From positions 186,001 to 250,000 of the forward strand of contig NIVC01000764.1 in assembly GCA_002269645.1 (NCBI GenBank): a stretch of DNA of 64,000 nucleotides, read 5' to 3'. Made by a program: the position numbers and the translations under genes. This document shows positions 22,655-60,099 of this stretch, one piece after another. Under the pieces are notes generated by a model that saw nothing but the letters and a program-made list of their open reading frames with translations, was not told the DNA's origin and ran no database searches. Positions within the stretch are counted from its first letter, which is position 1. Each line of letters begins with the position of its first letter. This stretch comes from Macrostomum lignano. Taxonomy: Eukaryota.

Positions 22655-25600
22655 CGAAAAACAAAAAACAACAAAAAACAAAATACGCTGTCATGATGGT
22701 AAAAGTCAGCGTCACAGGGCGCGCTTCATGGCTTGGGCGCGAACAAAGGCCGCGCCACCGGCAGTGTCCGGGGCGCCGGCGTCAGCCAGCAGACAGTCGA
22801 CATAACGCCGAGTTCGCGCTTGACCTCGCCGGTAGGGTGCCTGCAGCGTGAGCAGCAGCACCTCCTGCACCGGCTGTGGGCAGTACGACTCGGCGCGGAT
22901 GAGATGGCCTGCGAGCTGGAGTCGCCGACGGCGCAGATCACTTGGACGTGGCAGGCCAGCGCGGCGATAGAGTGCCGCGTTGGTGACTCGCTCGACGCCG
23001 ATGTTGAAGGCGGCGCGCAGCAGACCAGCGTGCGCCGCATCGACTTGCTGTTCGAGTGAGTCCGTCAGCGTCCAGGTCTCGGCGTTGTACAGCAGGACGG
23101 TCTCGATTACCGCCTGGAACAGCGCCGCCCTCTGGCGGTCCGGTAGGGCCTCGGACTGCAGGACTGCCCTCACAGAACGAAAGGCAGCCCAGGCAAGCCC
23201 GCGGCGGCGTCGCAGGTCCTCGCGAGCGTCTGGAACCAGACCGCCGAGGTAGACGAACTGCTGACATCGCGGGAGTTCGGTCGCCTGCCCGTCAGCGCCT
23301 CGGCAAAATATTGCAGCCTCGATGTCGTCCGGCACGCAGAGCACAACGGTCTTCTGCGTGTTGACCACCAGGCCGACACTCGCCGCAACGGCAACCAGCC
23401 TGTCCAGCTGCCGTTGGGCGCCCTCGACGGTCGAGGACAGCAGGGCGAGGTCGTCGGCGTAGCCAAGCACGCTGAGCCGCTTCTCCGGTTGACGTCGACC
23501 CACGCGTCGCTGCAGCAGAAAACCGTCGTCGTCGGTAGGAAGAGCAGTCCGCAGCACCCAGTCAAGCACCAGGACGAACAGAAACGGCGCCAGCGTATCT
23601 CCCTGAAGCACTCCGGAGGATGTCTCAAAGGAGTCCGATAGGCCGTCCGGTGTTGTCACAGCAGCTGTCGTATCACGGTACATCGCCATGACGGCGGAGA
23701 TCAGCTGCTCAGGCACGTTGTACGCGCGGAGCACCATTGGAAGCACGGCTCTGACAACCGAGTCGAATGCCTTCTTGAAATCAATAAAGATTAAAATCAG
23801 TATCGACTGACGAATCCGCGCCTCCTCGATGACTCGGCGAAGAGCCAGGATCTGCGCCACTGTGCCGCGATGGGGCCGGAACCCGTTCTGCTCTGGGCGC
23901 AGGTACGGATCCAGCACGGGCTGCAACCGCGAAAGCAGCATCCGGTTGAACAGCTTCGCTGCACAGGACTGAAGGCAGATGCCTCGATGGTCTTCAAGCC
24001 TAGTGGTGCCCGGCTTCTTTGGAACAGCGACGATGTGCGCCGTGGTCCATTCGTTGGGCGCCGCCTCACCGAAGAGCACGCGGTTCATCACTCTGGCGAC
24101 CTCAGCGGCCACACAGGGGATGCGCAGCGCCTCGATGGGCACCTCGTCCGGACCCAGCGCTTTCCCGCCCGGTGACTGCTGGGCGAGCTTGACAACGTCG
24201 GCTGCGTTGACTGGGGCTACGCTGAAACTCTCCTCTGCCGGCAGCGGCGTCTCCGGCGGCAGCGTCAGACTGTCTGGCAGCGGGGGTGGCGGCGCGTTGA
24301 CGATGGCGGCGAAGAACTCGCGCAGCTCGTTCCTACGCTCGTCCGGCGTGTCACCAGCCAGGTTCAGCGGATTGCGCCGCTTTCGTCCCGTCAGAGCGTT
24401 GATGGCGGACCAGGCCACGCGCCCTCTGGCATCGGGCCCAGCGGCAGAGACAGCCTGAATGGCGTCATCGACAGCCGCTTGTTGGCGCTGCAGGTAGACA
24501 GCTGCCAGAGCTGCCTCTGCCTCGCGGGTTGGTCGCCTGCTCAAGCGGAGCTTCTCCAGATCTTCCCTCGCTGCCTGAATCGCGGGGTCGTCCTGCCAGA
24601 CCGGCTGCCCACGTTGAGCCGGCTGCATCATCGGGACTGCTTGCTCCGCGGCGGTTCTGATTGCAGCGCACACTTCCGCATACTCGGCACTTCCACGCTT
24701 GTCGCCCAGCGCGGTGTTAAAGGCGCTAGCAAAGCGACGCTGCGTATCGGTGGCTCTGAGCGCGCGGTAGTAGCGCCGCGGTGGCCGCTTCGGCGGACGG
24801 TAGAGCGGATCGCGAAGGTTGAGGTCGCAGATGAGGAGCCGGTGATCGGACCGCAGAGCCAGCGGCGTGATGGTGCGGCAGTTGACGGCGCGACGACGCT
24901 CACGGAAACGCACGAGCACGTGGTCGAGCTGTGCTTGTCTCCGGGTTGCGTTCCTGCCACGCGCGTTCCGTCGCCTCCGCTTGCAGCCCACGAAGGTTGC
25001 GAGACCGCTCAGTGGCTTGCGGAAGCGGGTGTTGGCCGACACCATGTCCTGCCTCTCCAGGAAGTCCTCTAGTGCCTCGGTGTTGTTGTTCCCGCGTGGC
25101 GTCACGAACAGCGACCTCTCGGACCTACGCAGGACTGCGTTCAGGTCTCCGAGGGCGACCGCTGTGTCACGCTGCGCCGTCGCCTCTACCTGCACTGAGA
25201 GCTGCTCGAAAAACTCTTGAGCCTCGTCAGGGCGTGTGGCAGGGGGCGCGTACGCGCAGAACAGGCGAGCATTCCGACCGCGTAGCCGGACGTCGATCCG
25301 AAGCAACCGGGGGACAGGGAGATGCAGCGACAGCTCTGCTGCAGCCTCGGCCCGATCAGCGCTCCAACTCCTCCACGGCCTCGCTGGTCCGCAGAAGTAT
25401 AGTAGAGGGTCCACCCGGCGCCCAAGTCCTCACAATGAAGTCCCGGGTCGGCCTTGATAGACACCTCCTGCAGCGAGATGATGTCGCAGCTCAGGTCGTA
25501 CGCCAGCTTCGCCAGCACCCCTCTACGCCAAGCAGCCTTGAGAGTGCGGCAGTTGAGCGTCCCGACCCGAAGCATGCCCTGTGGTACGGCTGGGGCTCGA

Positions 25601-48318: not shown

Positions 48319-49975
48319 GTTGTAGCATAGCATTTTTATTTGCTTATATTATCAATAATGCAAAGTACAAAAGTACAAAAGGTGTTTCAAAAGAAATGAA
48401 CAAGAATATGACTCATTTGCTTTCAAAAAGATAGATTAATGGTTAAATATAATTGTACTATAGCTAAAAGTACTACACAATATATATACAACTAGTATTT
48501 ATTTTAGTTACTATATAAATAACAATAGTATTATTTACAAATTACAATGCAAATAATAAGTATCTTTTAAATAACTCTAAAAGCTTTTAGAGTTCATAAA
48601 GTTCCAAAATTACAAAAAAATTGTTTTGCCAATATAGGCCTACTTTAAAAAATATTTAACAAATCTAAAAACTTTATTAAAAAAACTGGAATAATGATAC
48701 TACTTTACTAGACAATAAAATTAACAAAGTTCTAATCTAATAGTATTGATTGAAATTAAATGAAAAACTTTGAAATTAGATATCTTCAAAACTTTTATTC
48801 CTAAATTTTTTATCAAAATCAAAATTTGCATTTAAAACTTAGAAAATTGGATTCAAAATTTGAAATTTGAAAAATTAAAATTAAAAATTTGGAATATCTC
48901 AACTCTAGGTCTAAATTTTGGAATACTTTAGCTAGCAAACATCCCCCAATAGCAAATAACCCTAGATAGAAAGCATCCCTAGATAGCAAGAATCCCTATA
49001 TAGCAAGCATAGGGCCTGCCTAGATAAAAAGGATCATTATAGATAGATAGCCAGCAATCCCTTTTTAGATACTAAGTACCCTCCACTTCCCAAGAGCAAG
49101 CATTTCCCAGATAGTATGCATCCTTCCAATAGCAAGCATTTCCTAATAGCAAGTAGGCCTATCTATTAGAAGACAAGTAGCTAATGCAACAATTGCCTTA
49201 GCTTTAGAGTGGCTCCATTTTTTTACCTGATACATTTTTTATATTGTACATAATGTTCTTTTTTGTTTTATAGAATGCTTATTTTATGTTTGATATTGTG
49301 GCTCCTTATGTTTGGCATTGTTGCTTTTTTACATTTCAAATAAGTGTCTCTTTTATGTTTGACATGGTAGTTCTTTTATGTTTGATATACATGTACATGC
49401 ACAATTTCCAAAATTCAGTTGGCTATGCAACTTAGTTTTAACAAAAATGCGATATCATTTTTAGTCAAATATGCGACTTACATGTGTTGACAAAGTGTTG
49501 ATAATGATAGTCATTAAATCTGCTTTGTTACCAAAGTGGCTGTTTACTGAAATGGCTGTTAATAAAGTGGATTGTATTTGTGCCTTTTATGTTTGATATG
49601 ACACTTCTTTGATATATTATAGGCTTAAAGGGTACTTTTTGTTTAACATTTTTAAATAAAAACTTTTTAAATAAAAAAACTTACACTATTTAGATTCAAA
49701 CTTAGGTTGCTACATTGTCATTAGCAGTCTTAAACTGTTCAAATCTAGTCTAGGTTAGCTCTTATAAAATTTATAATATAAATTATAAGTCTTTATAATT
49801 CAATATGCCTACTGAAAAAAAATTGGTTAGAGTAAAAGTTATGACATAGGCTCTAATTAATTTCTCAGTCAGCGACAGACCATTTTAAGTATATTGGAAT
49901 GGAAGTTCTTATAAATATTAATTAGTGAAGAGTAAACATGAGAATTGACATACAATATATGATGATTAAGTCAAA

Positions 49976-50841
49976 TGTACCAGGGGGTGTTTAACTAAAT
50001 TGTAGACTATCCTACCGATGTCACCAAGTTGTTGCAGGCTTAAACTCTCTCTAGAAATTATCCTACCGCAGGCACCAAGTTTTTGTAGGTGTCTTTACTA
50101 TTATGGTATTCTTATTCCACTATGCCACCAAGTTGTCGCAGGGCTATACACTTCCTAATTTATAATTACGCTACGGAATCAAGTTGTTGTAAATTAAGAT
50201 AGTTATTACTCCATAAAATTGCTTAGTCAATTGCTGCTTCTTAGAAAATATCAAGTCTAGAATTCTAATCTAAGGACTCCTTGAATCTATGCAAGGCGCC
50301 CTGGTAGCAGTGTCGAGCGGCAAACACTGGTCTACATGTAATTATGAATCTCACTACTATTATTATTACTACTATTAGTTCCCTATATTTAGTTGCGGGC
50401 TCCCTGGGAAGGAGTTGCCCGACTCGTCAACCGTCTATTTCTGGCTTCTCACAGCTTTCCTGGCCTCTTACGGCTTTTTCTGGCTTCTTACAGTTTTTCT
50501 TGGCCTCTTACGGCTTTTCTGGCTTCTCACAGCTTTCTTGGCCTCTTACGGCTTTTCTGGCCTCTTACAGCTTTTTCTCCTGTCTTGCTTTCCAGTGACT
50601 AAGACAACACGTTTTGCTTTTCTTGACCGAATCGAGGAAACGGCGGGCGAAGTTTTTAAAGCCCGAAAACGCTTGTATTTATAGGTTTACTGAGGGGGAG
50701 GACGGGTGCGCGGGACGTGGTTAAACAAAATATCAATTTAAACAAAATAATTATTTTTCGCTATAACAAAATAATTCCGTAACCAAGAAATTTGGCGTAA
50801 ATTCGAAATGGTATACGTATAAAAATATTGGGCCTGCCTCA
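49976..50841 (-). repeat. 3' LTR
   Basis: tgtaccaggggg...gggcctgcctca, duplicate of 58645-59511; includes about seven 19-20 nt ctggc(t/c)tct(c/t)ac(a/g)gcttt units at 50440-50575. Confidence 0.97.
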
Positions 50842-50846
50842 ACTGG

Positions 50847-50856
50847 CTTCCCTTCT
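50847..50856 (-). other. Polypurine tract AGAAGGGAAG
   Basis: Purine run 5 nt from the 3' LTR. Confidence 0.55.
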
Positions 50857-51212
50857 ACATATTTATGAATAAACTAGTGAGTGAATAAATGTGTAGTTAA
50901 AGTGCAAAGGGGGCTTTTAATCACAAAACGTAGGCACTAAATAAAATTGGCTGACACTTAAAACATTAAAACAGCACACAACATGGTAATATCAGTAATA
51001 TAGTTAGTGGAAGAATTGAGCAAGGTTGGCTATTATTAAAATGGCACGAAGTTGAGCGTACAAAAAGATGTTTGGCTAAATATAAAGTTGCACAAAGTTG
51101 AGCACACAAAAATTTTGGCTAAATAGGTATCCATGCAAAATTAGTGAAGGCTAAATAGGTATGCATGCAATGCGAAAAAAATAACAGTACATGACAGTTC
51201 AATTATAGTCAC

Positions 51213-51575
51213 CTAATTATCATTCAGATTAAATTCGTCCGGCAAAAGGTCGCGTAGAGGCCATCCGACTTGCTCGGCGAGCCACTTAATCTCGATGATA
51301 AGCAGCGTGCGAAAGTACGGCTGGCCAGCCGCATTCAGGTCATGAAGTACGTAATTCACGGCGCGGCGCCAAGCCGCGGCAGCTTGCTCAGGCGTGAATT
51401 CTTGGCGAAGCACAATGCAGGCTGGCCGGACCTGGGCCCGCTGTGGCAGCGGCCGGTCCAACCGCAAGTGGCCGATTCGCATTAGATATTCCTTCAGGGC
51501 AGCAATCAGTCGCTTCATTCTTGCCTGCTGTTCTGGCGACAAACCGTCCATGATGGCGCTGAAGTCGGCGCCCAT
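51213..51575 (-). CDS. Accessory ORF3, C-terminal part (predicted globular/helical, unknown function)
   Basis: 120-aa complex-sequence ORF inside the element; the frame is open upstream to about 52119 without a start codon. Confidence 0.55.
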   Translation of the reverse strand: MGADFSAIMDGLSPEQQARMKRLIAALKEYLMRIGHLRLDRPLPQRAQVRPACIVLRQEFTPEQAAAAWRRAVNYVLHDLNAAGQPYFRTLLIIEIKWLAEQVGWPLRDLLPDEFNLNDN

Positions 51576-52516
51576 CGCAGCAAGCCTTTGGATGTCTTGG
51601 TTGCCGGGGCAAACAAATAACTTGCAGCTGCACGGCAGGTTGACGCCTGTGGTGGCACTGCAGTCTGCGGTGGCGGCTGCTGATGCGACGGCGGTGGCTG
51701 CTGATGATGCTGAGACGGCGGTGGCTGCTGATGATGCTGAGACGGCGGTGGCTGCTGATGATGCTGAGACGGCGGTGGCTGCTGATGATGCTGAGACGGC
51801 GGTGGCTGCTGATGGTGCTGCGGCGGCGACTGGTGGCGGTGCCGCGGCGGAGACTGGTGGCGGTGCCGCGGCGGAGACTGGTGGCGGCGCTGCGGCGGCG
51901 ACTGCTGACGCTGCTGTGGCGGCGGCCGCGGAGCCAGCCTGCGGTGCACTGGCAGCTGCTGTCGGACTTTTGCTCGCGACGCCACACGCCGAGGCTGCGA
52001 CCGCTGAGCCGGCCGCTGCTGCTGAGGCGGGGCAGCTAACATCAGTGTGGGCCGCGCGCCAGCCGGGTGCCTCTGCATAACCGTCGGTTTTACCACCACG
52101 GACTGCACCGACTTCACTCTAACGAGCTCCTGTCGTGCTGCCGGATCCTGGGACACTGGCAGCCCTGACGGGGCCGGCCTCTTTGCTTGTGTACCCTGAT
52201 CCGTTTCTGCAGCAGGTCGCTTTGGCTTGGTGGAGGGCTCCGGTGGCTGCGAGGGCCCGGGCAGGTCAGCTGGCTGACGCTCCCGTAATGGCTCTGACGG
52301 CGGTGCCAGCGTCGGGGCAGGCTGCTGCGTAGCAGGCGGCTGCGACGGGGCCTCAGCTAGCTGTTCTTGCTCGTTTTGCTGCGCTGAACGCTCTGGCTGT
52401 GGTTGCTCAGTTTGCTCATCTTGCTGCATGGGCCAAGGCCCTTCAAGCTCTTTTAATAGATCGTCAAATTCACTACCGTCTGCTAAAATATTTAACTCTT
52501 CGTCTTCTTTATCCAT
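51515..52516 (-). CDS. Accessory ORF3, N-terminal part (acidic start, P/Q-rich, 27-bp repeats)
   Basis: 333-aa ORF on the pol strand between integrase and PPT, downstream of promoter-like motifs. Confidence 0.65.
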   Translation of the reverse strand: MDKEDEELNILADGSEFDDLLKELEGPWPMQQDEQTEQPQPERSAQQNEQEQLAEAPSQPPATQQPAPTLAPPSEPLRERQPADLPGPSQPPEPSTKPKRPAAETDQGTQAKRPAPSGLPVSQDPAARQELVRVKSVQSVVVKPTVMQRHPAGARPTLMLAAPPQQQRPAQRSQPRRVASRAKVRQQLPVHRRLAPRPPPQQRQQSPPQRRHQSPPRHRHQSPPRHRHQSPPQHHQQPPPSQHHQQPPPSQHHQQPPPSQHHQQPPPSQHHQQPPPSHQQPPPQTAVPPQASTCRAAASYLFAPATKTSKGLLRWAPTSAPSWTVCRQNSRQE

Positions 52517-52584
52517 AACGGATTTGCTCTTGACTGCTTCTTTATTGCTACTTAATTGCTGCCTTATTGCTCTGTTGAGGATGA

Positions 52585-52808
52585 GGAACTGATTGCGTCA
52601 GGGATCTCGCTTATATAGGTTTACAAACATTCCACTTTGGGGGGTATCATGTTTCAAGCTTATTCAAACAAACAATTATTTGTTTAAATGGCAGGTCTTC
52701 TCTCATTGGCTGATGATTCTTCCTTATTGGCTGTCGGTCTCTTCGCCTCTCTCCTCCTATCCACGGCCTCGAAATCCCTTCACTTCTACGCCTCCTCTCA
52801 TTGGCTCT
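52585..52808 (-). promoter_or_regulatory. Candidate internal promoter for ORF3
   Basis: Three CCAAT boxes (52800-52804, 52726-52730, 52705-52709), TATATAA 52617-52611, TCAGTT initiator with A at 52590, ATG at 52516. Confidence 0.55.
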
Positions 52809-52842
52809 CACTCCTCCTTCTCCTTCCTTCCTTCTCCTCCAC

Positions 52843-54560
52843 TCAGAAACTGAGATTGTTCAACAAAGACAGCACAGTGGCCAGCCGCTTCAAGCAACAA
52901 TAGCACTTGGGGGGCTTGACCTGCCTGCGTGTATTGTATCTCCTCTCTGAATTAGCTTCCTCGTGCTCATGCTCAATCTCATTGTTCTCTCTGGCGTCTT
53001 CTGCATTGCTCATTATTCCTTCTTCTTCTACTGCACTCTCTGACTCTTGGCTCTCATCTTCGCTCTCAGTTGCTGGTTCCGTTTCGGACTCTCTCATTTG
53101 GCATTGCCATTGCACTCGCTCATCCTCAGATTCAGTGTCATACTCAGACTCTTCACTAATCACTACCTCCTTATGCTTCCTCGGCGGGTGGCTTCCCTTA
53201 GCTTTAGGTTCCCTCCTCGACTGATTTTTCTTCCGGTGCTTCTCCTGCTGGCTTCCCTTAATTGGCAATTCTGCGGTCGAATTAGGAACTAGTGTTAAAT
53301 TGTCCCTATGCACTAATAATTTATTCCCTACAAGCTCACCATCTTCCTCTCTCTGCACTCTAAATACTACATCTGAGATCTGTTCGATCACTCTATAGGC
53401 GGCTCTCTTCTTTCTGTGAAATTTGTTAGACTCCTCATTGTCTAACTGCGGGTTATTTATTAGCACTAAACTCCCTACTGGTACTTCCTTAGGCTGCTTG
53501 GCTGTTTCAGCAATATTCTTTCTATTATCAGCAACTTTCTCGAGCTTATCTCTCACGATTTTTCTGGCAATTTCTAGCCTTTCGGCATGATCTGCGACAT
53601 AGGCTGGATAGCCTGAGTACTGATTTGGCTGGCGAATTTGACTGTCTAGTGGCAAAACTGGCTCCCTTCCGAATAACAGGAAATGGGGTGAATAGCCTGT
53701 GGTTTGATTCACACTAGTGCGCACTGCAACAAGCGCTGCTGGGATCATTAAATCCCAATTGCTATGGTCCTTCTTAATTAAACAGTTAATGATGGATTTC
53801 ACTTGCTTGTTAAACCTCTCTACCAAGCCATTACTTTGGGCATGGTACGGGGTGGTACAAGTGTGTTTAACATTGTACAAATCGCAAAACGCTTTAAACT
53901 GTCTGCTTGTGAAGGTTTTCCCATTGTCAGTATGTATCCAATGGCATTGACCATATTCGCTGAAAATTCGCTCCTGTAAGATCTTGATCACGGTATCAGA
54001 CTTCTGATTACGGATCGGGAACGCGAATGGGTAGCGGGTAGTGCTATCAACTACAGTCAGCACATATCTATGGCCTCTCTTGCTTTCTTTCAAAATGGGG
54101 CCTATGATATCGATATGTAGGCGATGAAATGCCTCGTTAACTGGGAATGACTGCACTGGAGCCTGAACAGGGCATCCTCTTTTGCTTTCCAAACACGGAA
54201 TACACTCAGATATGTACTTCTCAATGGCTGTCACTAAGCCAGGTCTCCAAAATCTCTCCCTAACTCTTTGCACTGTCTTGTCACGACCCAAGTGTCCTGC
54301 TAGTGGGCTATCGTGTAGATCAGCCAGCACTAATTTGTCCAGCGACACTGGCAACACAATTTTGCTTACTCCTTCTTCTTCAATAACAAGCATATCGCTT
54401 TCGATTTTCATTTTCTCGTAAAATTTGCTCAACTGCCTTAATTCTGAGCTAATGCTCTTTTGCTCGGCGGGGGGTTCCTTTTCTTCGAGTTTGCAATTTA
54501 GCAAAGTGCGAATATTGGGGTCTTCTCGCTGGGCATTAACGATCTGCTCTTCCGCAGGGG
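52843..54560 (-). CDS. pol: Integrase part of pol (separated from RT/RH by a frameshift near 54557-54561)
   Basis: AQREDP; H..HLG...C..C zinc finger; HIDIIGP, HTDNG, NGLVERFN (DDE); acidic C-terminal tail. Confidence 0.93.
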
Positions 54561-57500
54561 GTTGGGTAGGAAGTCAACTAATAATGCTCCAACCTTCAGC
54601 GTGCCATACTCCTCACTGTGCTCAGATTGTGGGGTGACTCTGCTCGATTGCATAATGCAGGAGCTCTGTGTTTTCACACTGTCAATCCTTACACTCTTCT
54701 CACCAGAGACTATTTTATTCCTCTGTGGCTCAGGGGGGTTGGTCTCTCCTTCTCTCAGCTCAGTGGGGGGCTGGGTCAGATCGCTCATGCTGTCCTTAGC
54801 CTTCCCATTCTGGTTCTGCTTTGCACACACGCGTTCGCTGGGGATAAACTCCTCTTTATCAGTTCTTATCTCTTGGTTCACTTCGGCTCTTACGCCTTTG
54901 CTGGTGATTTTGCTTATCTCTCGACTCTTCTTCTCGGCTTCCGCCTTCTCATTGGCTTTACAATCTGGCTGGGCAGCCTCGGCTGGCCTTCGGGACAAGC
55001 TATCGGCATTTGAATGTTTCGCGCCACTCCTATGCTCGATTTCAAATTGAAACTCGTTGAGGCGCTCAATCCATCTGCCTAAAATGCCCTGGGCTTCTGT
55101 CTGCCTTAATAACCAAAGTATAGCCTTATGGTCGGTCCTAGCTAGAAATTTCTTTCCTATTAGATAGAAGCGGAAATGCCTCATGGCATCTACTAGAGCT
55201 AGCAACTCCTTGCGAGTTATGGGATAGCGTTTTTCTGACTCCTTCATAGCGCGACTAAAGTAGGCGATTGGTCTCTCGACACCGTCTGATTGGATTTGTC
55301 CTAAACAGGCACCTATGCGTCCATCACTGGCGTCTACATCGAGAACCATCTTCACCTTCTCATTGTCTATGAACTCAGGGTATGCTAACACGTCAGTACT
55401 CATCATACGGGTTTTCAATAGCTCAAACGCTTCATCATGCTTTGCTGTCCATTTTGCTTGGAAGTTTTGAACTCCCTTACGAGTCAACTGGAAAAGAGGA
55501 TGCGCTACTTCAGCATAATTTTTGACAAATCTGCTGTAGTAGTTGCACAATCCTAAAAAGCTTCTTAATTCCTTTACTTCCTTTGGCTTTGGCCAGGTCC
55601 TAATGGCTTCAATCTTGGCTTCGTCTGTGCGAATGCCATCTCTGCCTATCACATGGCCTAGATACTTGAGTTCAGAGTGAAATAAGTTGCACTTTTTCGC
55701 TCTCAACTTTAAACCTGCGGTGATCAATCTCTGAAACACCTCTCTTAGATGGGATAAATGCTCCTCAAATTGCTTCGAGTAAGTAACTATATCGTCAATA
55801 TACGACATTGCAAACTTATGCTGGATTCCGGCTAGCACTAAGTTCATCAGTCTTTGAAATGTACCGGGCGCGTTGGATAACCCTTGCGCCATAACCTGGT
55901 ACTCAAACTGTCCTCGCGTCAGAGTAGAGAACGCGGTCATGAACTTATGCTCTTCCTTTATAGGCACTTGCCAATAACCTGAGTTAAGATCTAAACTACT
56001 AAAGTACCTACTGCCAGTAAGATTAGAAAAAGTTTCTTGAATATTGGGGAGGGGATAGGGAAAATAGTTAACTCTAGAGTTGAGCACTCGGAAATCACTC
56101 ACTATTCGGATGGTGCCATCCTTCTTTGGCACAATGACTAATGGGGTAGAATAGGTAGAATAGCAGGGGCGAATGAGATTCTTGGCTAGCATGTCGTCTA
56201 GCTGGGCGTCGACTTGCTTTTGGAGATGAGGGGGGATGCGGCGGGTAGGGATTCTAACAGGGGTCTCGTCCTTCAGGGAAATTTCATGAGTGACTAGATG
56301 AGTCAATCCCATGTCTAAATCATGCTGGGAAAATGCTTCTCTATTCTCTCTCACGAGATCAATTACTGCTTTTCGCTGACTTTCAGATAAATTGGCACCA
56401 ATACTAATTTCGCTCACCCAAGCATCTTCAGTTGCCTGAGCTTGATAGACACGTCCGGCGGGTTGTGCGGCATCTTCGGCAATTGTCGGCGAAGCTGATT
56501 CGGCGGCGGAAGGCGATGCTGACCAGTAGACGAGGTCCTTGGCTCTCATGGGCTTGGCCAGACCAATCAATGTCGACTTCGGCAGTCTCACGTCGACAGA
56601 GTGTCGATTCACGATCTCCACGATGGCACTGCCGTCTCTCATGGTGACCAATGTCGGAACCATCTCTACTGTCAATTCCTTGGCTCTCACGCCTTCTCCG
56701 ATCACTTCTACTGTCATAGGAGTGCCATGATTGAGCTCATGGTCTTTCGCTAGCCTAATGGGAACTCTCAATGCACTATTAGCAGGTACTACTGCCTTTT
56801 CTCGAGTATAAACTCGGCAAATTCTAACTGCTTGGCGAGTGTACTGCATAGGCACACAGAGGCCTCTTTTTAGTACAAGCATGCCATTGTCTAAATCAAT
56901 GCTCTTACAGTGGGAAAGGAAGAAGTCCATGCCAAGAATGTTATCACATTCATAGCTGCACAGCAAAAAGCTGGTATTAATTTGAATATCTCCAAAGGTT
57001 ACAGACACACTAGCTTCTCCTTCTAGCTGCACTGAGGAACCATCAAATGTGGTAACTCTCTTATTGGTTTCTCGGATTTGCTCTGTCTTGATCACCTTGG
57101 ACCATACTGACTTGCTCAGGAAGCAGTTTCCGGCTCCGGTGTCAAGCAAGAAGTCAATTTCTTGACCTTCAACGTCTCCAAAGACAATTGCTTCGCTACT
57201 TTTCTCGCTTATCAAATCAACTTTTGCTTTCTCAGCTGCTTTCTTAGCTTCTCGATATTTCGCTTTGCGAGATTTTCTCGCCTTCTGCTTTGCATTTGCT
57301 GGCTTAGTCACTGGGGACTTTGTCAACTCGGATGCTGATGCTTTTGCATCTGACTCACTGGGCTCTGACGCCAATAACTCAAACATATTAGGAGATAGCG
57401 CGATGGGAGACGCGCTGTTTACAAGTGCATTACGCATTGGTGCTCTATACATGGGTGCATTACGCGTTGGTGCATTACGCATTGGTGCATTATGCATTGA

Positions 57501-57644
57501 ATTCCTGGAAAATGGGACTTGTCGCCATCCTCCAGGGAGTGGGTTGAAAACGGGTTTGCGGGAGAAATGAGAGGCCTGAGCTTTGCTTTGGGGTTTCCTA
57601 GAGGGACGTGGCCTCGAATATCGACCCTCGAATCCTAGTTTCCC
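54498..57644 (-). CDS. pol: pol: protease, reverse transcriptase, RNase H
   Basis: FLLDTGA, LDLNSGYWQV, YIDD, LDVDAS, RTDHKAI, NADSLSR; the frame is open from the slippery site at 57644 to ATG 57497 (49 codons). Confidence 0.95.
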   Translation of the reverse strand, partial: GKLGFEGRYSRPRPSRKPQSKAQASHFSRKPVFNPLPGGWRQVPFSRNSMHNAPMRNAPTRNAPMYRAPMRNALVNSASPIALSPNMFELLASEPSESDAKASASELTKSPVTKPANAKQKARKSRKAKYREAKKAAEKAKVDLISEKSSEAIVFGDVEGQEIDFLLDTGAGNCFLSKSVWSKVIKTEQIRETNKRVTTFDGSSVQLEGEASVSVTFGDIQINTSFLLCSYECDNILGMDFFLSHCKSIDLDNGMLVLKRGLCVPMQYTRQAVRICRVYTREKAVVPANSALRVPIRLAKDHELNHGTPMTVEVIGEGVRAKELTVEMVPTLVTMRDGSAIVEIVNRHSVDVRLPKSTLIGLAKPMRAKDLVYWSASPSAAESASPTIAEDAAQPAGRVYQAQATEDAWVSEISIGANLSESQRKAVIDLVRENREAFSQHDLDMGLTHLVTHEISLKDETPVRIPTRRIPPHLQKQVDAQLDDMLAKNLIRPCYSTYSTPLVIVPKKDGTIRIVSDFRVLNSRVNYFPYPLPNIQETFSNLTGSRYFSSLDLNSGYWQVPIKEEHKFMTAFSTLTRGQFEYQVMAQGLSNAPGTFQRLMNLVLAGIQHKFAMSYIDDIVTYSKQFEEHLSHLREVFQRLITAGLKLRAKKCNLFHSELKYLGHVIGRDGIRTDEAKIEAIRTWPKPKEVKELRSFLGLCNYYSRFVKNYAEVAHPLFQLTRKGVQNFQAKWTAKHDEAFELLKTRMMSTDVLAYPEFIDNEKVKMVLDVDASDGRIGACLGQIQSDGVERPIAYFSRAMKESEKRYPITRKELLALVDAMRHFRFYLIGKKFLARTDHKAILWLLRQTEAQGILGRWIERLNEFQFEIEHRSGAKHSNADSLSRRPAEAAQPDCKANEKAEAEKKSREISKITSKGVRAEVNQEIRTDKEEFIPSERVCAKQNQNGKAKDSMSDLTQPPTELREGETNPPEPQRNKIVSGEKSVRIDSVKTQSSCIMQSSRVTPQSEHSEEYGTLKVGALLVDFLPNPLRKSRSLMPSEKTPIFALC

Positions 57645-58534
57645 TGATTGGGGTTGCGGGCAGGGAATCGACTCTGGTTGTTAAAGCCAGGTCGCACTAC
57701 ATTCTGTGTTGGCTTCCACGGAATCTGCCTCCTTATCTGCTGCTGCATCAGCGGGCGAAGCTGTGGCTGGAACGCCTGAACTCTTGGCTGATAGTATTGC
57801 GGCCTAGTCTGAGTAACTGGCGGCTGCTGCTTTTCAGCTTGCAGTTCCTGAATTAGCTTCTTCTGCTCTTCGAGCTCAGATTTCTGCTGCTTAATTAGCT
57901 TTTCTAACTTGCTCTTCTCATCATCTTCGTCTCTCACGACTCTGACACCGTTCTTATGCGACATATGCCAGGCTGCTTCTATTCTCCTAAGCATGCGTCT
58001 GGCCTCCTGCAGGCTAGTGGGCTGAGCAAAAATGAGTTTCTCCCGGGTATCGGAGGAAATTCTTACTCCCTTGATAAATTGCTCGATTACTTCCTCTTCA
58101 CGCTGTTCTGCGTTCATATTTGGGAACGCCCTAGCTGCTAGTTCGATCAAAGCATCGGCGAACACGTCGGTTGCCTCGTTTCTACCCTGCATCCTACCTC
58201 TAAACTCCTCTCTGCACTCGGATGAACTACCAATCCGGCCAAATCTTTCTACCAATCTCTCCTTAAACTCCTCATACGTCAAATCCTCAGGTAGATTTAA
58301 TCGCTGCACTGCTGCAAACGCAGTCGATAAGTCTAGATTGGCTAATAGTTCAGTCTTCCTGTGCTCTTGGTCTATCCCTTCCTGATCACACCTTTGGTCG
58401 AATGCGGTTAACCATATTCGCACATCCTGGCTGGGAGTGTACTTTTGGATCTTTACATGCCTCATAGGCCCTAGTTCTAGCCTGTTCCTAAGCTCCTCTG
58501 CTAATAAACCTATAGCGTCATTAAGTGCTGCCAT
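57635..58534 (-). CDS. gag: gag
   Basis: 299 aa directly after the PBS; capsid-like W...F...C, LTYEEFKERLVERFG, MQGRNE..D.FAD.L..LA..AFP; no CCHC knuckle. Confidence 0.9.
   Translation of the reverse strand: MAALNDAIGLLAEELRNRLELGPMRHVKIQKYTPSQDVRIWLTAFDQRCDQEGIDQEHRKTELLANLDLSTAFAAVQRLNLPEDLTYEEFKERLVERFGRIGSSSECREEFRGRMQGRNEATDVFADALIELAARAFPNMNAEQREEEVIEQFIKGVRISSDTREKLIFAQPTSLQEARRMLRRIEAAWHMSHKNGVRVVRDEDDEKSKLEKLIKQQKSELEEQKKLIQELQAEKQQPPVTQTRPQYYQPRVQAFQPQLRPLMQQQIRRQIPWKPTQNVVRPGFNNQSRFPARNPNQGN
57638..57644 (-). promoter_or_regulatory. -1 ribosomal frameshift heptamer G GGA AAC
   Basis: X XXY YYZ in the gag frame immediately before TAG; pol lies in the -1 frame. Confidence 0.8.
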
Positions 58535-58598
58535 TGTACTCTCACGTTATTTGCTGTACTCTCACGTTATTTGCTGTACTCTCACGTTATTTGCTGTA
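58535..58598. repeat. 3 x 20-bp tandem repeat in the gag leader (tgtactctcacgttatttgc)
   Basis: Three exact copies abutting the gag ATG. Confidence 0.95.
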
Positions 58599-58629
58599 GC
58601 GGTCGACTTAGTCGGATTCCAATCCCTTT

Positions 58630-58641
58630 CCGCTGCCACCA
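58630..58641 (-). other. Primer binding site TGGTGGCAGCGG (tRNA-Leu type)
   Basis: 3 nt inside the 5' LTR; complementary to the recalled metazoan tRNA-Leu 3' end ...CCGCTGCCACCA. Confidence 0.85.
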
Positions 58642-58644
58642 AGT

Positions 58645-59511
58645 TGTACCAGGGGGTGTTTAACTAAATTGTAGACTATCCTACCGATGTCACCAAGTTG
58701 TTGCAGGCTTAAACTCTCTCTAGAAATTATCCTACCGCAGGCACCAAGTTTTTGTAGGTGTCTTTACTATTATGGTATTCTTATTCCACTATGCCACCAA
58801 GTTGTCGCAGGGCTATACACTTCCTAATTTATAATTACGCTACGGAATCAAGTTGTTGTAAATTAAGATAGTTATTACTCCATAAAATTGCTTAGTCAAT
58901 TGCTGCTTCTTAGAAAATATCAAGTCTAGAATTCTAATCTAAGGACTCCTTGAATCTATGCAAGGCGCCCTGGTAGCAGTGTCGAGCGGCAAACACTGGT
59001 CTACATGTAATTATGAATCTCACTACTATTATTATTACTACTATTAGTTCCCTATATTTAGTTGCGGGCTCCCTGGGAAGGAGTTGCCCGACTCGTCAAC
59101 CGTCTATTTCTGGCTTCTCACAGCTTTCCTGGCCTCTTACGGCTTTTTCTGGCTTCTTACAGTTTTTCTTGGCCTCTTACGGCTTTTCTGGCTTCTCACA
59201 GCTTTCTTGGCCTCTTACGGCTTTTCTGGCCTCTTACAGCTTTTTCTCCTGTCTTGCTTTCCAGTGACTAAGACAACACGTTTTGCTTTTCTTGACCGAA
59301 TCGAGGAAACGGCGGGCGAAGTTTTTAAAGCCCGAAAACGCTTGTATTTATAGGTTTACTGAGGGGGGGGGACGGGTGCGCGGGACGTGGTTAAACAAAA
59401 TATCAATTTAAACAAAATAATTATTTTTCGCTATAACAAAATAATTCCGTAACCAAGAAATTTGGCGTAAATTCGAAATGGTATACGTATAAAAATATTG
59501 GGCCTGCCTCA
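58645..59511 (-). repeat. 5' LTR
   Basis: TG...CA; TATAAAT on the minus strand near 59350. Confidence 0.97.
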
Positions 59512-60099
59512 CAAACTAAGTCTAAATCTGGTCATACATGTTTGGTCATAGCTCAAGTCATAGTCAAAGGCCTGTTAGAGCAGAGCTAGACTACGCTAGA
59601 CTGAATTGTGCTAAGAGGGGGGCTACACAACACTGTAGATAACAACACTTTACTCTACTACACAACATCCATAGTACACACTACAAGTCTACGATCCGGT
59701 CAGCCGCAGAGTCAAGTGAGGTGGGGGCGGAGAAAAGAAAATAAAACTTGAGCTTTTGAAAATCGGCCGGGCTGCTGACACGAAACTAAAGAAGCGCTTA
59801 TAATTTTAACAAGCTGTTGAAACCCGCGGATTTTGAACCCGGGGAATTCCAATCCCGGAACTATTTTTCCATGTTTTCTGAAATCTGAGGCCATACTCAA
59901 ACAAAAACTTTTTAATAGTTAGTAGGATAGAGATAGACATCAAATGGAGTACATTTGTGTAAAATTAGAATTTGAGTCAAACATTGATCTTGTTGGTTGG
60001 GTTGCTTTTTACTTTAAATAGGCAGTTAATGTCTGTCTGACTCTAAAACATGTATCGGCAAACTCTGGCCTCTGCCTCTGACTCTCTGAGTCCCTTGGA

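Follow-up and report, generated by a model that had tools for sequence, protein, structure and literature searches.

Movable LTR ends built from tRNA-Leu primer-site cassettes in a Ty3/gypsy clade of Macrostomum lignano

A clade of Ty3/gypsy retrotransposons in the flatworm genome of Macrostomum lignano carries movable LTR ends built from cassettes, an arrangement that seems to be undescribed. The modules that make up these ends are heritable, and any one of them can be the true integrated end of the element. We observed modularity of the arrays, variable termini, sharing of modules between families, three insertions with unequal LTR pairs, and internal primer sites that match the tRNA perfectly. 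LTR ends and the primer site are usually taken as single, fixed signals. We consider it probable that the modules are gained, lost and swapped during reverse transcription by a combination of internal priming and out-of-register strand transfer, a process that needs no benefit to the element.

The window element and its terminal array

The element lies at positions 49976..59511 (minus strand) of the window, by which we mean the whole 64,000-nt stretch of contig NIVC01000764.1 that was analysed, and is flanked on both sides by the 4-bp target duplication CAAA. Its 5′ LTR (58645..59511, minus strand, 867 bp, TG...CA, with a TATA-like box at LTR nt 160, 59347-59352) and 3′ LTR (49976-50841, minus strand, 866 bp) are one substitution and one indel apart, and the element is a young Ty3/gypsy copy. 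Between the LTRs, all on the minus strand, lie a gag frame of 303 aa (57635..58546), pol (52843..57680), a third ORF (51213..52597) and a polypurine tract (50842..50859) that ends in a 3-nt gap mirroring the gap at the other end. In the window copy pol occupies two frames, one encoding protease, RT and RNase H (54498-57680) and the other integrase (52843-54573), giving the Pfam domain order protease-RT-RNase H-integrase. The best solved-structure match of the RT is Ty3 RT, and the nearest named proteins (the three best protein matches) are M. lignano proteins, one of them with a 100% match in this genome. Classification as Ty3/gypsy draws on the direct TG...CA LTRs, the target duplication, the tRNA primer site, the polypurine tract, the domain order and an RT nearest to that of Ty3.

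Several further features of the element and its surroundings were recorded. The split of pol in the window copy falls between RNase H and integrase (54498-54573). The third ORF, which also spans two frames in this copy and is a single ORF of 454-480 aa in four of seven sibling loci, has a TATA-like box of its own, a middle part rich in Gln and Pro, and a C-terminal stretch of 115 aa that is conserved (30-50% identity in other lineages), and it gave no Pfam match and no usable Atlas match. Mirror-image 3-nt extensions lie outside TG...CA at both ends (50842-50844 and 58642-58644), the primer-side one being 4-5 nt long in other lineages compared to 3 nt here. A 20-nt unit is repeated three times in the leader before gag (58537-58596) and a short tandem repeat lies inside the LTR (about 59110-59250), both differing in unit number among copies. 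Elsewhere in the window, positions 1000-42000 hold dense minisatellites with periods of 16-36 nt, and a 905-aa frame with an RT domain (22712-25429, minus strand) probably belongs to a non-LTR retrotransposon.

Beyond a 3-nt gap (58642-58644) from the 5′ LTR lies the true primer-binding site for tRNA-Leu(AAG/TAG) (58622..58641, minus strand), which is exact over its first 12 nt, carries a 3-nt A bulge replacing one T, and is again exact over the following 5 nt. Inside the LTR this junction recurs as a series of minus-strand modules of about 52 nt, each consisting, in element sense, of a 3-nt gap, a decayed copy of the tRNA-Leu primer site, a spacer and an LTR-end motif. The end of the last module is the end of the LTR. 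Module D, the terminal one (58645..58698), comprises a gap at 58696-58698, a site at 58678-58695 (15/18 matches), a spacer at 58654-58677 and the LTR end itself at 58645-58653. Module C (58699..58749; gap 58747-58749, site 58729-58746 with 15/18 matches, spacer 58708-58728, end motif 58699-58707) is the real LTR terminus in copies L003, L012 and L013, and Module B (58750..58802; gap 58800-58802, 17-nt site 58783-58799, spacer 58759-58782, end motif 58750-58758) is the real terminus in copies L006, L010, L016 and L020. Module A (58803..58853; gap 58851-58853, decayed site at about 58834-58850, a spacer, and an end motif at 58803-58811) is the most decayed and takes the first position wherever it occurs; upstream of it lies the end motif of the LTR body (58854..58862, minus strand). 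An identical four-module array is present in the 3′ LTR (49976..50193, minus strand). A 786-nt contig from an independent run (X1) covers the whole array with two differences; none of the runs listed as containing the array is recorded as RNA.

The array is confirmed as real, and it is more extensive than was seen in an earlier note made from the letters of the window. That note had placed the primer-site-like stretches correctly, and its unit make-up (primer site, gap and LTR end), its spacing of 54, 51, 53 and 51 nt, its report of the same four units in the 3′ LTR (50009-50193 in our coordinates) and its assignment of the strongest decay to the unit furthest from the LTR end were all reproduced. 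The 15/18 tRNA-Leu match that it claimed for the two units nearest the LTR end (D and C) holds against a tRNA-Leu(AAG/TAG) gene of the same genome. Its description of the spacers as unrelated is right for pairwise comparisons within the window copy (one of six pairs at p 0.04) but not across clusters, where spacers resemble one another, and its U5 label is a putative one, drawn from position and not from a mapped polyA site. By eye, the 8 nt after the terminal site (58614-58621, minus strand) match the further T-arm complement of tRNA-Leu at 6/8 positions, a match that may help the terminal site to beat the internal ones.

The 3′ end of tRNA-Leu(AAG/TAG) accounts for 12 of the 34 hits of a tight pattern in this genome, and ARAGORN called Leu genes in all ten of the tRNA-Leu(AAG/TAG) pattern matches scanned. 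A two-core pattern with cores 38-50 nt apart matched the genome 233 times compared to 27 for the reversed control, and three of 30 two-core loci inspected were unrelated tandem repeats. Across 158 modules the mean match to the tRNA-Leu end was 14.8 of 18 positions, above the 10.4 obtained for shuffles in which the fixed first four letters were kept and the rest shuffled, and all modules align to the same 3′ 18 nt of the tRNA. The terminal site is intact at nt 1-9 and broken at nt 12-14 in all lineages, being bulged in 24 of 27 cases and perfect in the other three; three matches of the terminal-site pattern were unrelated GC-rich sequence. Viral and metagenome contigs returned 0 and 0 matches to the array pattern, which is specific to the window junction and little informative on other animals.

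Modules across copies and LTR families

Other copies carry the same units whole, in different numbers and orders. The parsed set holds 95 distinct arrays, 175 distinct module sequences, 42 spacer clusters and 15 LTR groups under analyst-chosen cut-offs, with LTR groups cut at an arbitrary score and arrays constituting non-independent samples. Over the 42 spacer clusters the period has a median of 52 nt (range 49-62). Alignment of LTR copies shows that unit number and order are polymorphic: within the window's family, 33 arrays display 18 orders, five module types act as the LTR terminus, and 6 of 17 co-occurring module pairs are found in both orders. Arrays reach 7 and 10 modules, and they include exact tandem duplicates of one module (L125/L126) and, in the 10-module array (L202), four near-identical copies of one module.

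Associations between neighbouring parts of the modules point to where exchange takes place. Across 96 junctions the primer site is linked to its downstream spacer at z 18.0, compared to z 3.3 for the upstream spacer, and because the site travels with the downstream spacer far more than with the upstream one, most exchange is placed where the primer site begins. For the att motif the links to its two neighbours are of nearly the same strength (z 6.2 and 4.9), and primer-site variants move between spacers too; ordinary template switching in the shared 30 nt therefore contributes as well.

Perfect 18/18 sites occur in 7 of the 158 module sequences, and several of them sit on spacers that carry decayed sites elsewhere. 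Decay proceeds mainly by G-to-A change (193/316 site changes), with wobble pairing kept in only 30/316. The mean tRNA match is 13.6 in first modules, 14.8 in middle and 14.6 in last ones, and decayed modules merge into the LTR body upstream.

To place these arrays, an RT tree of 36 rows, all from this genome, was used, in which 33 rows in five lineages are split with full support from three outgroup rows. Arrays occur in all five lineages, between which RT four-fold sites are 0.18-0.51 identical and silent sites are saturated; the outgroup, with 65% identity in RT protein, carries a single bulged site without the 52-nt array. In 11 cases, LTR groups that can be aligned over no more than 0-251 nt of their upstream 600 nt have spacers with 90-100% identity, and in one of these cases the spacer is the same at every position where the alignment of the upstream 600 nt covers just 136 nt, at 77% (the missing upstream alignment of the F1 locus L006, whose LTR is truncated, was not counted as evidence). 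On these alignments the simplest reading would be exchange between families, with strong conservation as the alternative. Furthermore, some copies lack any intact module, and one of these, the young copy C1098 with identical LTRs, marks the array as dispensable.

Two observations touch on the limits of the clade. Outgroup copies L211 and L212 carry an isolated 11-nt primer-site-like stretch in the LTR, about 115 nt upstream of the primer site, perhaps the trace of an older duplication. Short elements without a pol match (L174, L175, L178, L179, L182, L222 and others; about 4-6 kb between arrays) have a diverged gag-like frame and the third ORF, and they hold LTRs and module arrays in common with coding families.

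We tentatively raise the possibility that the modules are selfish cassettes of about 52 nt, each combining a primer site and an integrase end, which might spread between long-diverged LTR families via plus-strand transfer in mixed particles. If true, 40 or more cassettes would form a pool whose evolution is separate from that of the elements carrying them, and they would be the smallest known retro-parasites.

Unequal LTR pairs and the origin of the arrays

The two LTRs of single insertions were compared in 65 pairs, 57 of which are distinct by flank; four were set aside and 53 scored. Those set aside were C1098 (tandem element), C1382 (unlike LTRs), C221 (rearranged 3′ end) and C617 (interrupted). 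The LTRs of C1382 (L189) come from different subfamilies (about 66% identical) and lack a clean target duplication, and the 3′ LTR of C221 (L286) contains an inverted piece and a second polypurine tract and LTR start, followed by the last module end with a matching target duplication. Among the scoreable pairs, 50 have matching arrays and three differ by whole modules.

In the first unequal pair, C391, the target duplication AATA fits both ends and the LTRs are identical at 945/946 positions. An internal end motif closes its 3′ LTR immediately ahead of a perfect 18/18 site, and its 5′ side retains the module with the perfect site, followed by the bulged terminal site; in the sibling C723 that module is present in both LTRs. 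Priming by tRNA-Leu at the internal site would be expected to give this structure, and this one insertion suggests that an internal site may act as a backup for the same tRNA-Leu. The short-read contigs compared with the insertion did not show its junctions. C759 (duplication GGTT, LTRs identical at 719/719 positions) has one extra module in the 3′ LTR only, and C1860 (duplication CAAG, LTRs 97.7% identical, with the differences of about 2% spread evenly) has three extra modules in the 3′ LTR only. Pairing of the minus strand with an internal site during plus-strand transfer would be expected to give both structures, although the longer 3′ LTR could be due to a later deletion in the 5′ LTR, above all in C1860. 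Two insertions with a perfect internal site, C3711 and C723, have full-length, equal LTRs, and the terminal site was therefore used in them.

These pairs can be accommodated in the following scheme. tRNA-Leu would sometimes prime at an internal site, yielding a shorter 3′ LTR, and plus-strand transfer, for which the primer site is the only homology, would sometimes land on the wrong copy, so that modules would be deleted, duplicated or joined from two co-packaged RNAs. Because the plus strand copies the tRNA itself (available text of PMC7472051), transfer onto an internal site would give a perfect site on an old spacer; the tRNA copy would thus reset that site, which would then decay by G-to-A change. 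With ordinary template switching as a further source of shuffling, the array could maintain itself as a by-product without any needed benefit to the element. Against this mechanism, internal priming is represented by one insertion, C391, which is the only one of 53 pairs with an internal end of the 3′ LTR at a primer site. No heritable module gain was caught unambiguously among the insertions, and the model leaves the steady period and the origin of new spacers without explanation.

Persistence of arrays in all five RT lineages despite saturated silent sites, together with the steady period and the average of 14.8/18, could instead reflect selection for an RNA-level role with the same tRNA-Leu, such as extra primer loading into particles or bridging of two genomic RNAs, with shuffling left to ordinary template switching across the 30 nt in common. 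Drosophila gypsy is a known case of tRNA bridging by two sites (available part of PMC1635307). We regard such a role as unlikely, given that the site changes counted above mostly destroy pairing, that young copies without intact modules exist, and that the array folds no better than shuffles (z +1.0). A hairpin of the end motif with the site was also rejected, there being no fold signal (the same z) and an equal G loss at three positions predicted to differ. Shuffling might alternatively take place at the DNA level after insertion, through unequal recombination or gene conversion between genomic LTR copies rather than reverse transcription, as the unlike LTRs of C1382 would allow and as would fit 5′ deletions in C759 and C1860 by slippage between direct repeats. 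Such exchange, however, does not give a decayed module a site with full complementarity to the tRNA, nor does it account for C391, whose 3′ LTR terminates precisely at an internal end motif and whose target duplication matches, and the 50 of 53 pairs with matching arrays imply that new orders mostly exist at insertion. Post-insertion shuffling accordingly seems quite improbable as the main source.

The earlier note had offered explanations of its own. Internal sites might be decoys that absorb 3′ tRNA-Leu fragments, in which case the bulged terminal site would stay out of their reach, and the conserved break at nt 12-14 of the terminal site would suit this idea, resembling the mismatched sites favoured in mouse ERVs (available text of PMC7472051) and fitting a known priming-versus-silencing trade-off. 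A first mismatch profile looked sponge-like, but this seed-sponge reading failed once the alleles were thinned to 30 (G loss 0.63 in the 5′ half compared to 0.67 in the seed half, p 0.44). With the seed match intact in only 28/100 site alleles, wobble-keeping changes as rare as noted above, no half-site bias, and decoys on the same RNA being targets too, we think it very unlikely that the sites would serve in this way. Backup priming by other tRNA isoacceptors would be in keeping with site variants that are stable within a module type, but by eye no tRNA-like 3′ end other than Leu(AAG/TAG) itself equals a variant site among the matches listed in two pattern searches (34 hits of the tight pattern, and 100 of the 104 hits of a looser pattern), and 67/116 variants carry indels, making this role scarcely credible. 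The proposed CRISPR-like record, in which the LTR end would acquire new spacers of foreign or host origin in chronological order, could draw on a weak polarity, the first module being more decayed on average (see means above), and on the merging of decayed modules into the LTR body. It is contradicted by the 6 of 17 pairs found in both orders, and for the two of four window spacers searched for an outside source (D and C) every match lies inside arrays (11/11 and 8/8). Spacers of different clusters are moreover alike beyond shuffles (z 10.5, partly shared composition), and a derivation from leaders was rejected, as spacers do not resemble them (8.08 compared to 8.85 shuffled). An ordered record of captured sequence is thus extremely improbable.

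Relation to known systems

In its LTRs (TG...CA), 4-bp duplication, primer site, polypurine tract and domain order, the window element is like Ty3/gypsy (Metaviridae) elements with a tRNA-Leu primer site; unlike in the usual Ty3/gypsy element, its LTR has no fixed end, and the module in last position, whichever one that is, forms the terminus. A whole clade thus has a movable end built of cassettes that pass between families, and its arrays would constitute a genomic record of strand-transfer errors, primer-site resets and co-packaging of distant families, with countable rates (the array is altered in about 3 of 53 insertions). LTR ends of this kind would be misplaced by annotation tools that settle on the first primer site or require the two LTRs to be equal. 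Engineered retroviral vectors with two primer sites, described by Voronin and Pathak in 2004, reportedly show frequent initiation at both, the same step as is inferred here; those vectors are artificial, whereas the arrays described here are natural, with up to 10 sites, each of which has its own LTR end.

In agreement with the earlier note, which knew of no such arrangement, our literature search found such arrays nowhere described, with subscription papers, Repbase reports and the 2020 M. lignano classification outside the search. The main text of a survey of M. lignano LTR elements (PMC12801592) does not mention PBS, primer binding, tandem or tRNA, and the searchable part of its supplements has 0 matches for four terms and no mention of primer sites.

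Helenus and TRIMp3 have tRNA-related sequence inside the LTR; according to the available part of PMC10886601, that of Helenus is a tRNA-derived promoter piece in a non-coding miniature element, whereas in the present elements, coding ones included, the repeated part is just the 18-nt complement of the tRNA end. Identity with Helenus/TRIMp3 was rejected, as Rfam gave no match in window positions 49500-60000 and the window element is coding. In Drosophila gypsy and Ty3, too, a single RNA carries two sites for one tRNA, but the second of these binds a different region of the tRNA and is located close to the 3′ end of the genome (PMC1635307, available part); a bipartite primer site of this type was rejected, since all modules here correspond to the same 3′ 18 nt. 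Mouse ERVs have mismatched, sometimes reverting primer sites, much as the terminal site here is mostly bulged and perfect in 3/27 cases, but they have one site per element, and no internal copies are described in the available text of PMC7472051.

MAL-type isolates of HIV-1 naturally carry an extra primer-site copy beside the real one, which, in the available text of PMC3185550, is a single 23-nt insertion downstream of the site, without LTR-end motif, spacer or array. Plus-strand transfer in HIV-1 relies on the primer site for guidance and can end up at an incorrect position (available part of PMC12657518). Aberrant second-strand transfer there gives defective proviruses, whereas in the elements described here the repeats would make such slips precise and viable.
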